Source: a phage
Direction: 5' to 3' (one strand)
Sequence record: PZ386978.1
Length of the DNA: 64,000 nucleotides
Shown: positions 27,545 through 28,590 of the stretch, one piece after another
Position numbering within the stretch: the stretch's first letter is position 1
How the letters are laid out: each line of letters starts with the position of its first letter
Program-made: the position numbers and the translations under genes
Notes under the pieces: generated by a model
Databases searched by the model: none
Told to the model about the DNA's origin: nothing
The model's input: only the letters and a program-made list of their open reading frames with translations

Positions 27545-27985
27545 TTAGAAAGGTTTTCTGCGTTGTTTGTTAATGTTAGCTTTCATAGCAGCTAAATGGT
27601 TTTGCTGTTCAATCAGTCGTGAACGTTCTTGATGACTAAGTGCCATAGTGTTCACATTCTCAATTGCTTGAGTGGCTTGTTTTAAAGCACGACCAATCTT
27701 ACCAGACATTTTACGTTTTGCAATAGTTGCTTGATGCTTAGGTTCAACCACACGATAACCAACACCCATTGAAGCAACCAGATAAATCTTCTCTTCTTTA
27801 AGAAGCTTCTCAATAAACTTCTCAAGCCGGTTTAGACGTGTAAGTGCATAAGCCTTCATTTCATCTTCGTACTTAACAATGTCGCCTTGATAAGTTGGCT
27901 TAACAATACCTAAGAAGGTATCCATCTCAGAATGTGATACAGTGTCACCGTAACTAAACTTTGCTGCTAATGCTTTTGTATTCAT
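27545..27985 (-). CDS. Hypothetical protein (array-flanked cassette, gene 2)
   Basis: 146 aa ORF; basic C-terminus; no recognisable motif. Confidence 0.55.
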   Translation of the reverse strand: MNTKALAAKFSYGDTVSHSEMDTFLGIVKPTYQGDIVKYEDEMKAYALTRLNRLEKFIEKLLKEEKIYLVASMGVGYRVVEPKHQATIAKRKMSGKIGRALKQATQAIENVNTMALSHQERSRLIEQQNHLAAMKANINKQRRKPF

Positions 27986-27987
27986 AA

Positions 27988-28590
27988 TTAAACGTTACCT
28001 TCTGAAATAACTTCTACAGAAAAACGACCAAAGCGTGGACGCCAATCACCTACACCACAAAGGTTGCCAGCATTTTCCAGAACCATCAGAAGTTCCTCTC
28101 GGGTGATTTGCTCTTCATCGAACATCAAACCAAACTCTACAGACCAGTCACGGAAGATTGGACGGTAGCTCATAACTCGTGCTGTGCCAATCTTAACAGA
28201 CTTAGCGTAGATAAAGTCTGGATTCTTAGCAAGTTCTTGTGGGTTTGCTGGACAGTTCTTGATAGTCATTGGGAAGACTACATCTGTCAGCATAATGGCT
28301 CGGTCAATTACCTTACCAAGTTTGTTGAGTTTTGCACCAGACTTGATACAAGCCTCAATCATCTCACCGTTCATAACAAAACCAAGTTGCTCGTCGTAGT
28401 AACAAGAAGTTACCAGTTGGCTTTCTGCTAAGAGCGCATAGTCTTCGTCAGTCTTTTTACGTTTACTGGACAGAGACTTGTGATATTTTGTCAGAGGGTT
28501 TAATGGGTCTGACAGCGTATCGTTATGGCTCAAGAAAGGACGAGTACCAGTGATTTTGATATTTAGCAGTTTCATAGCATTTAGCTCCAC
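27988..28590 (-). CDS. Hypothetical protein (array-flanked cassette, gene 1)
   Basis: 200 aa ORF; GTGGAG ribosome-binding site 7 nt upstream; no recognisable motif. Confidence 0.55.

Follow-up and report, generated by a model that had tools for sequence, protein, structure and literature searches.

What do two small genes do in a phage genome when they match no annotated family and are hemmed in on both sides by repeated modules? The question arises in a stretch of 64,000 nucleotides (sequence record PZ386978.1, called the window throughout), which comes from the genome of a Felixounavirus phage. Two open reading frames (ORFs) stand here on the minus strand, at 27545-27985 (146 amino acids) and 27988-28590 (200 amino acids when read from a GTG), with one module upstream (about 28797-28652) and three downstream (about 27512-27099). 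An initial annotation had described this layout, and the coordinates of the co-oriented ORFs, of their neighbours (thymidylate synthase/dihydrofolate reductase (DHFR) and ligase/polymerase), of a UUCG terminator-like hairpin and of the one-plus-three modules were all confirmed. It had also read the proteins as a host-takeover or anti-defence pair whose expression the arrays govern. That part has to be replaced. The region 28855-27051 (minus strand) is very probably a complete type II VIPR (Viral Interference Programmable Repeat) locus of Felixounavirus. The arrays are genes for guide RNAs (vrRNAs) that the larger protein, Vipr, would load, and not regulators of the proteins, as follows from their GGY/NN tracts, their covarying tail pseudoknots and their matches to satellite DNA under a code that skips one nucleotide at a time. 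The system is best read as anti-satellite interference protecting the phage from a parasite, because three of its four guides are aimed at three alleles of one satellite junction.

VIPR was described in 2026 by one laboratory in two preprints (bioRxiv 10.64898/2026.04.26.720920 and 10.64898/2026.04.26.720927). A VIPR system, they report, has a RAMP-like protein (Vipr) and an accessory one (Vap), and its vrRNAs have 9-16 YNNGG repeats ahead of a structured tail. In type II, vap1 stands next to vipr, and its product is predicted to bind DNA. Phage SUSP1 has the two genes between a single upstream vrRNA and three downstream ones, and the RNAs co-purify with Vipr. The two variable bases of each repeat (NN) pair with double-stranded DNA, every third target base is skipped, and binding silences transcription, an effect that Vap1 was shown to enhance for SUSP1. 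Most natural targets of the SUSP1 system belong to a satellite that probably parasitises the phage. For the locus in the window, our own analysis covers the identity of Vipr, the anatomy of tracts and tails, the RAMP fold, the skip-specific matches and the conserved trio of two genes and arrays. vrRNA expression, ribonucleoprotein formation, the filament and triplex structure, silencing and its enhancement by Vap1 are taken from the SUSP1 preprints.

The two proteins and their flanking modules

The vipr gene most likely starts at the ATG at 28575, giving 195 amino acids, rather than at the GTG at 28590, since a GGAG lies nine nucleotides upstream of the ATG and the solved SUSP1 protein begins MKLLNIK. 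A sequence search of the PDB returned a single strong match for the 195-residue protein, 36pp_D ("SUSP1 Vipr protein"), with 191 of 195 residues identical (98 per cent, E = 1.5e-127). Thirteen of the fourteen residues quoted in the preprint text are present (H17, K33, R39, E71, M72, K82, G87, K88, R138, C173, D177, W178 and R179); the fourteenth, given as 'T175', is a valine both here and in the SUSP1 sequence. According to the cryo-electron microscopy preprint, these residues contact G1, G2, Y3, the skipped base and the non-target strand. The protein has an RRM core, a glycine-rich loop, a thumb and structural similarity to Cas5/6/7 proteins, the features of the RAMP superfamily, and is a homologue of about 20 kDa with a single RRM and with the GGY- and DNA-contacting residues. 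The earlier statement that neither protein has a recognisable motif stands at the level of sequence profiles (Pfam, NCBIfam and PADLOC gave no family match for either, and PHROGs gave only families of unknown function), but it fails for Vipr once the solved structure is considered. Both proteins have roles described in bioRxiv 10.64898/2026.04.26.720920.

For Vap1, the 146-residue protein, a search of PDB sequences with its alignment profile found no match, and a Foldseek comparison of its model with the PDB found no significant one. The model (predicted local distance difference test score 96) shows a core of the order helix-strand-helix-helix-wing and, after it, a helical hairpin. It weakly suggests that the N-terminal part is winged-helix-like, which agrees with the "WH-like" prediction of the preprint without proving it. 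An exhaustive search found 234 remote Vap1 homologues of similar length, where a word-indexed protein search gave close relatives only.

The two genes and the arrays travel together. Vipr is present in 130 phage records, of which 118 are Felix O1-like (subfamily Ounavirinae, at least 90 per cent identity). Beyond these, three distant Vipr homologues (41-49 per cent identity) were examined, one on a phage-like contig from a metagenome, one in a Xanthomonadaceae and one in a Rhodococcus genome. Each is followed directly by a gene for a Vap1 homologue (Vap1 profile, E = 8e-11 to 2e-46), and the pair is flanked by same-strand GGY/NN arrays. Relatives that keep vipr and vap1 are never without arrays.

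Exactly four tracts with 7-15 in-phase GGY triplets at a five-nucleotide period occur in the window, all on the minus strand and all flanking vipr and vap1. By chance, few would be expected: 100 dinucleotide shuffles gave a mean of 0.03 tracts, and no shuffled tract had more than five in-phase triplets. In 31 unique tracts drawn from nine phages, G2 never varies and 99 per cent of Y3 positions hold a pyrimidine (1.4-2.0 bits), with only 0.07 and 0.11 bits at the two N positions. The tracts span 10-18 pentamer units, the longest being above the range in the preprint. We call the upstream module vrRNA1 (vr1) and the downstream ones vrRNA2 to vrRNA4 (vr2 to vr4; Table 1). The initial annotation had set the upstream module apart from the downstream three. 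It is instead homologous to the last of them (family D2, 79 per cent identity), and the two inner modules resemble each other (family D1).

Each guide tract ends in a tail of one of two types, both with an a-b-a'-b' pseudoknot topology. The internal type, on the inner modules, combines GGGUAG...CUAC with a second stem to downstream sequence; the terminal type is found on the first and last modules. Internal-type tails have 93.5 per cent of cells paired and three compensatory pairs, with a covariation score reached in 0 of 500 shuffles, and terminal-type tails have 100 per cent of cells paired and three pairs with compensatory changes, the samples being small (nine and four sequences, respectively). 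When the pairing was slid as a control, it fell to 21-44 per cent for both pseudoknots. Rfam has no family for the tails or the arrays. The locus has the type II layout, a single vrRNA before the genes and an array after them, all on the same strand as the genes, and every feature of a type II VIPR system that can be tested on sequence is present.

A conserved, stable hairpin also stands directly 5' of every guide tract (28757-28799, 27485-27512, about 27352-27396 and 27221-27260, minus strand). Its core is GUCUU...AGAGGGU(U/C)UUUUAA, and it comes in two sequence variants, one on the outer and one on the inner modules. This leader could be a processing site or an assembly-start signal; we found no discussion of it in the accessible text of the VIPR preprints.

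Guide targets in an E. coli satellite

Satellite copies were reached by using the baseplate-hub gene of the phage (13486-14283) as a probe. Of 5426 complete E. coli genomes, 474 contain a chromosomal match to it, a "phage baseplate protein" gene. Nine diverse loci were taken from these (labelled L006-L014). Each holds an island of about 11 kb (L006 5800-17300 and its counterparts in L007-L014) with a serine recombinase, tape-measure, baseplate and HNH genes and small unknown genes. The integration sites are yciI/tonB, a DUF72-family gene next to yecD, and positions near wrbA and near dinB. These islands fit the satellite described in the preprint. Their tape-measure and baseplate genes are related to those of the phage itself, and part of the baseplate gene is 92-96 per cent identical in nucleotides to the phage's, which indicates recent exchange. 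The satellites also hold stretches of 1.5-2.9 kb without an annotated gene (e.g. L006 6726-9284).

We scored the NN string of each guide against the satellite loci with 0, 1, 2 or 3 skipped bases, using shuffled guides as controls. Matches above the controls appeared with a skip of one nucleotide only; skips of 0, 2 and 3 stayed at background. vr1 matches at 28 of 30 NN positions in satellites L006, L007, L012 and L014 (shuffled controls at most 22). For vr2 the match is complete, 20 of 20 positions at L011 6255-6283, with the invariant last unit unmatched. vr4 matches at 25 of 36 positions at L010 6139-6087 (25 of 30 over units 3-17), and its local score is 19, where the controls reach 13 at most; a BLAST search with its 'ideal target' found no better satellite allele than the MRE162 type.

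The three sites are allelic forms of a single gene2/gene3 junction in the small-gene operon of the satellite. By the annotated coordinates, each site lies mostly within one gene, and the bases skipped are the wobble positions of its codons. By BLAST, the vr1-type allele is present in 255 complete E. coli genomes, the vr2-type allele in 131 (87 of them with the exact site) and the vr4-type allele in 102, and the sum is close to the number of satellite-bearing genomes. Examples are NZ_CP029122 for the vr1 site, NZ_CP191567 for the vr2 site and NZ_CP119400 for the vr4 site; NZ_CP064847 is another genome with the satellite. Guides of four relatives also match satellites. No guide matches the window itself above background, and a BLAST search of the downstream array against E. 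coli genomes gave no matches.

Two of the nine satellites carry a GGY/NN vrRNA of their own (L012 3614-3572 and L014 3696-3644, both minus strand), and the islands have no annotated vipr. The tail of the satellite vrRNA resembles the terminal tail of the phage, with compensatory stem changes (UGUCG/CGAC). One satellite-borne guide matches another satellite (21 of 26 positions at L010 2041-2078). That satellites encode vrRNAs is remarked in the preprint, and the examples seen here agree with it.

Taken with the SUSP1 work, these matches suggest the following mechanism. Vipr would polymerise along the vrRNAs of the four flanking modules, one protomer per pentamer, each protomer pair concealing a GGY triplet and exposing the next two bases. 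The exposed NN string would pair with double-stranded DNA, skipping every third target base, and the resulting stable R-loop would block transcription. Such a complex at the satellite junction would shut off the operon, Vap1, winged-helix-like to judge by its model, would strengthen the effect, and silencing of the gene2/gene3 junction would disable the satellite. The idea of a host-takeover or anti-defence pair survives in so far as the unit takes part in a conflict between genetic elements, but its aim is a satellite in the E. coli chromosome and not the host or host defence.

Several points weigh against this anti-satellite account. No satellite target was found for vr3 in the nine copies, and the full-length NN match of vr4 is only 69 per cent, under the 80 per cent criterion given in the preprint. 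No function is known for the satellite genes under attack, and what the phage gains is therefore a matter of inference. vrRNA expression and processing, Vipr loading and silencing in the present phage are presumed by analogy with SUSP1, and the source papers on VIPR are preprints. Finally, the terminator-like hairpin after vap1 leaves the route by which vr2 to vr4 are transcribed in question.

Could the locus instead be a decaying relic, or serve mainly against rival phages? vr3 matches the vrRNA tails of rivals and no satellite, vr4 is imperfect at its best target, and the genes have been lost in many relatives. Against this, Vipr is at least 95 per cent identical in 117 phage records with its functional residues intact, vr2 has its perfect target in 87 genomes, and the 28-of-30 target of vr1 occurs in more than 100. 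Three guides on three alleles of one site also looks like ongoing selection. We regard a relic or a mainly anti-rival role as improbable.

Less probable still is the reading that we started from, a host-takeover or anti-defence pair with arrays acting in cis as promoter or operator elements. A strong promoter-like site does lie in the upstream region, and the proteins are without family annotation. But the 195-residue protein is the solved guide-RNA-binding Vipr, the hypervariable dinucleotides of the tracts decode to satellite DNA, all modules but one come after the genes, and no guide rises above background against the flanking E. coli genes or the phage itself. Hardly credible at all are iterons of a replication origin or packaging site with the proteins as their DNA-binding partners, for which the position among ligase/polymerase and nucleotide-metabolism genes and the winged-helix-like Vap1 might speak, but about half of the related phages are viable without both genes and most modules, a five-nucleotide period with variable dinucleotides is no repeated binding site, the tracts all share a strand and run into RNA pseudoknots that covary, and the preprint reports the modules as small RNAs that co-purify with Vipr. 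A toxin-antitoxin reading was rejected along with the cis-regulatory and origin-iteron ones, on the identity with solved Vipr, the one-strand, RNA-like modules and the decoded targets.

vrRNA3, the empty site and the surrounding genes

Among the guides of the VIPR locus in the window, vr3 behaves differently. With a skip of one nucleotide, 17 of 18 consecutive positions agree with the DNA for the most frequent vrRNA tail (ATGGGTAGTTAGTCTCAGCTACATTAAAA), found in SUSP1, bumzen, nataliec and VpaE1 (18 of 22 for the whole guide without its invariant last unit). The tail sites matched by the guide (27295-27364, minus strand) are L005 27900-27860, L003 5207-5167 and L001 3812-3772. Its local score is 16, which none of 1000 unit shuffles and one of 1000 base shuffles equalled and which other skip lengths did not give; the empirical p of about 0.001 is before multiple-testing correction and post hoc after about a dozen comparisons. 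When 30 real guides were compared with nine VIPR loci, vr3 was the sole outlier, the rest scoring at most 12. Among 150 phage records, 97 have the targeted tail type at 99 per cent identity or more. IMG/VR, scanned for an exact pattern of 12 vr3 units, gave no match.

The four phages that have the vr3 guide all have a mutated copy of the targeted tail. This apparent self-avoidance is weakly supportive: the carriers, all close relatives, differ from the target tail by one or two positions, which would be thin protection. Together the matches are suggestive of a guide directed at the vrRNA tails of rival Felixounavirus and Suspvirus phages, and we offer this as a lead and not a finding. If true, vr3 would let the phage silence the guide array of a co-infecting competitor.

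The proposal in the initial annotation that the two genes form a repeat-delimited accessory unit is borne out by phages that lack them. Felix O1, JH2 and EC6 have neither vipr nor vap1 and keep one fused module, a promoter-driven orphan between ligase and the next gene; SWJM-02 has two orphan modules (loci L023, from Felix O1, and L024 to L026, compared with window positions 27051-28855). In the Felix O1 module (L023 3633-3914), the promoter and hairpin leader are 96 per cent identical to those of vr1, and the terminal tail and terminator are 98.6 per cent identical to those of vr4. The promoter at 28828-28855 is also kept at this vipr-less site, as is the region 27051-27098 (98.6 per cent identity). 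The empty site occurs as one contiguous stretch in 112 of 231 related records, and the region surrounding the locus is present in 260 records. The orphan guides of SWJM-02 decode to satellite DNA (28 of 34 positions at L009 9602-9651 and 23 of 28 at L012 3581-3541).

To judge from its sequence, the empty site is what a crossover between the first and last leaders would leave, be the direction loss or gain. That vr3 is an anti-VIPR guide and, in addition, that the vipr-vap1 cassette comes and goes by recombination between the hairpin leaders that belong to the first and the last module is a tentative joint proposal, which we think somewhat unlikely to hold in both parts. If it does, the orphan vrRNAs of about half of the Ounavirinae records, which have no Vipr of their own, could make use of Vipr from a co-infecting phage, as must the vrRNAs that satellites carry. 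We did not find the anti-VIPR guide or the leader recombination in the accessible text of the VIPR preprints, and they may be new.

The features of the locus are listed in Table 1. The promoter upstream of vr1 probably drives a vr1-vipr-vap1 transcript.

Table 1. Features of the VIPR locus, from the promoter to the array-closing hairpin (window coordinates).
Feature	Position	Strand	Description
Sigma-70-type promoter	28828-28855	-	TTGACA, 16 nucleotide spacer, TATACT; 11 of 12 consensus positions; just downstream of ligase stop
vrRNA1 leader hairpin	28757-28799	-	CAUCACUUAAGAGUCUUCUAAGAGGGUUUUUAAGUGAUG; inverted repeat I3; RNA fold z = -3.1; conserved in relatives
vrRNA1 guide tract	28686-28760	-	15 pentamers; NN = TC AT GC AG TT TG AT TT AT CT AA AG CG GC AT
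vrRNA1 tail	28652-28685	-	Terminal-type pseudoknot, GUGG/CCAC and GGUAG/CUACC
vipr	27988-28575	-	195-residue RAMP-fold guide-RNA-binding protein; ORF also open from GTG 28590
vap1	27545-27985	-	146-residue Vipr-accessory protein; begins 2 nucleotides past vipr stop
UUCG-loop hairpin and U-run (terminator-like)	27508-27533	-	AGCCUC-UUCG-GAGGCU, 27533-27518; 3' of vap1; RNA fold
vrRNA2 leader hairpin and guide tract	27432-27512	-	Hairpin 27512-27485, tract 27486-27432; NN = GA GG GG TT AT TA GA TT TA AA, then invariant AT
vrRNA2 tail	27397-27431	-	Internal-type H pseudoknot, GUAG/CUAC and AGUCUCA/UGAGACU
vrRNA3 leader and guide tract	27295-27396	-	Tract 27364-27295; NN = GA GG TA TT GT TC GC AC TA AA GA, then AT
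vrRNA3 tail	27260-27294	-	Internal-type pseudoknot, alternative stem 2 UAAUCGAA/UUCGAUUA
vrRNA4 leader hairpin and guide tract	27133-27260	-	Hairpin 27260-27221, tract 27222-27133; 18 pentamers
vrRNA4 tail	27099-27132	-	Terminal-type pseudoknot, AAGG/CCUU and GGCAG/CUGCC
Array-closing hairpin	27051-27098	-	Inverted repeat I2; overlaps promoter-like TTGACA, 17 nucleotide spacer, TATTTT for next gene 27006-26623

The locus is flanked by genes for thymidylate synthase (23523-24422) and DHFR (24424-24969) on one side, and by ligase (28863-29963), an HNH/AP2 endonuclease and DNA polymerase (31600-34329) on the other. Four genes downstream of the VIPR locus stands a small Cro/C1-type helix-turn-helix (HTH) regulator (26117-26446, minus strand; Pfam HTH_3, E = 3e-9). 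Relatives conserve it whether or not they have vipr, so it probably has nothing to do with VIPR. Between small genes and the DNA polymerase lies an ORF of 188 amino acids (31062-31628, minus strand). In relatives the corresponding gene carries the annotation HNH or homing endonuclease, and it varies, being missing from AYO145A and of another length in nataliec and bumzen.

Relation to known systems

VIPR is a recently reported form of RNA-based DNA recognition, related to CRISPR but distinct from it, with a non-contiguous code, and Vipr has been proposed as an ancestor of CRISPR RAMP proteins. The locus in the window is an orthologue of the SUSP1 type II system. As a direct orthologue of the published type specimen, it belongs to a kind of system that is already known, and the window adds no new one. 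What it provides is an independent computational replication, with guides other than those of SUSP1, of the one-nucleotide-skip code, the skip at the wobble position and the satellite target. It also indicates that the guide set of one phage can cover three alleles of one satellite site. The new material is possibly limited to this guide-to-allele mapping, the empty-site polymorphism with its orphan guides and the candidate anti-VIPR guide; the latter two bear on the evolution of guide repertoires and on competition between phages.

As in SUSP1 (vap1 at 28031-28471 and vipr at 28474-29061 of its record), the order is vrRNA, vipr, vap1 and three vrRNAs, in the same position between ligase and a p159-like gene. 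Leaders and tails, the one-nucleotide-skip code and the class of target, an E. coli satellite with tape-measure and baseplate genes, are also the same. Unlike in SUSP1, all four guide sequences differ, vr4 has 18 pentamers against the 9-16 given in the preprint, and vr3 has its apparent match in vrRNA tails of other phages, among them SUSP1.

With the backbones of Class 1 CRISPR-Cas complexes, built of Cas7-family RAMPs (Csm3, Cmr4, Csf2, Cas7-11), VIPR shares one protomer per fixed RNA interval, periodic base flipping and recognition of foreign nucleic acid through a guide RNA. It differs in its non-contiguous guide, which uses two of five RNA bases and two of three DNA bases, and in being phage-encoded, having no nuclease and acting by silencing. 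Nor does the locus itself look like CRISPR-Cas: the modules of about 130 nucleotides hold tracts of five-nucleotide period and no repeat-spacer array (24-48-nucleotide repeats), the neighbouring ORFs (ligase, HTH regulator, DHFR and others) include no cas1, cas2 or other cas genes, and PADLOC gave no match.

A closer parallel in purpose is Vibrio phage ICP1, which, from work by Seed et al. in Nature in 2013, is said to encode a CRISPR-Cas system targeting the PLE satellite. The type I-F CRISPR-Cas system of ICP1 is complete, with adaptation and degradation of the target, unlike the present locus, which consists of one RAMP protein and Vap1, with no known acquisition machinery and no nuclease. 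Common to both is a lytic phage with an RNA-guided system directed at a chromosomal satellite that parasitises it.
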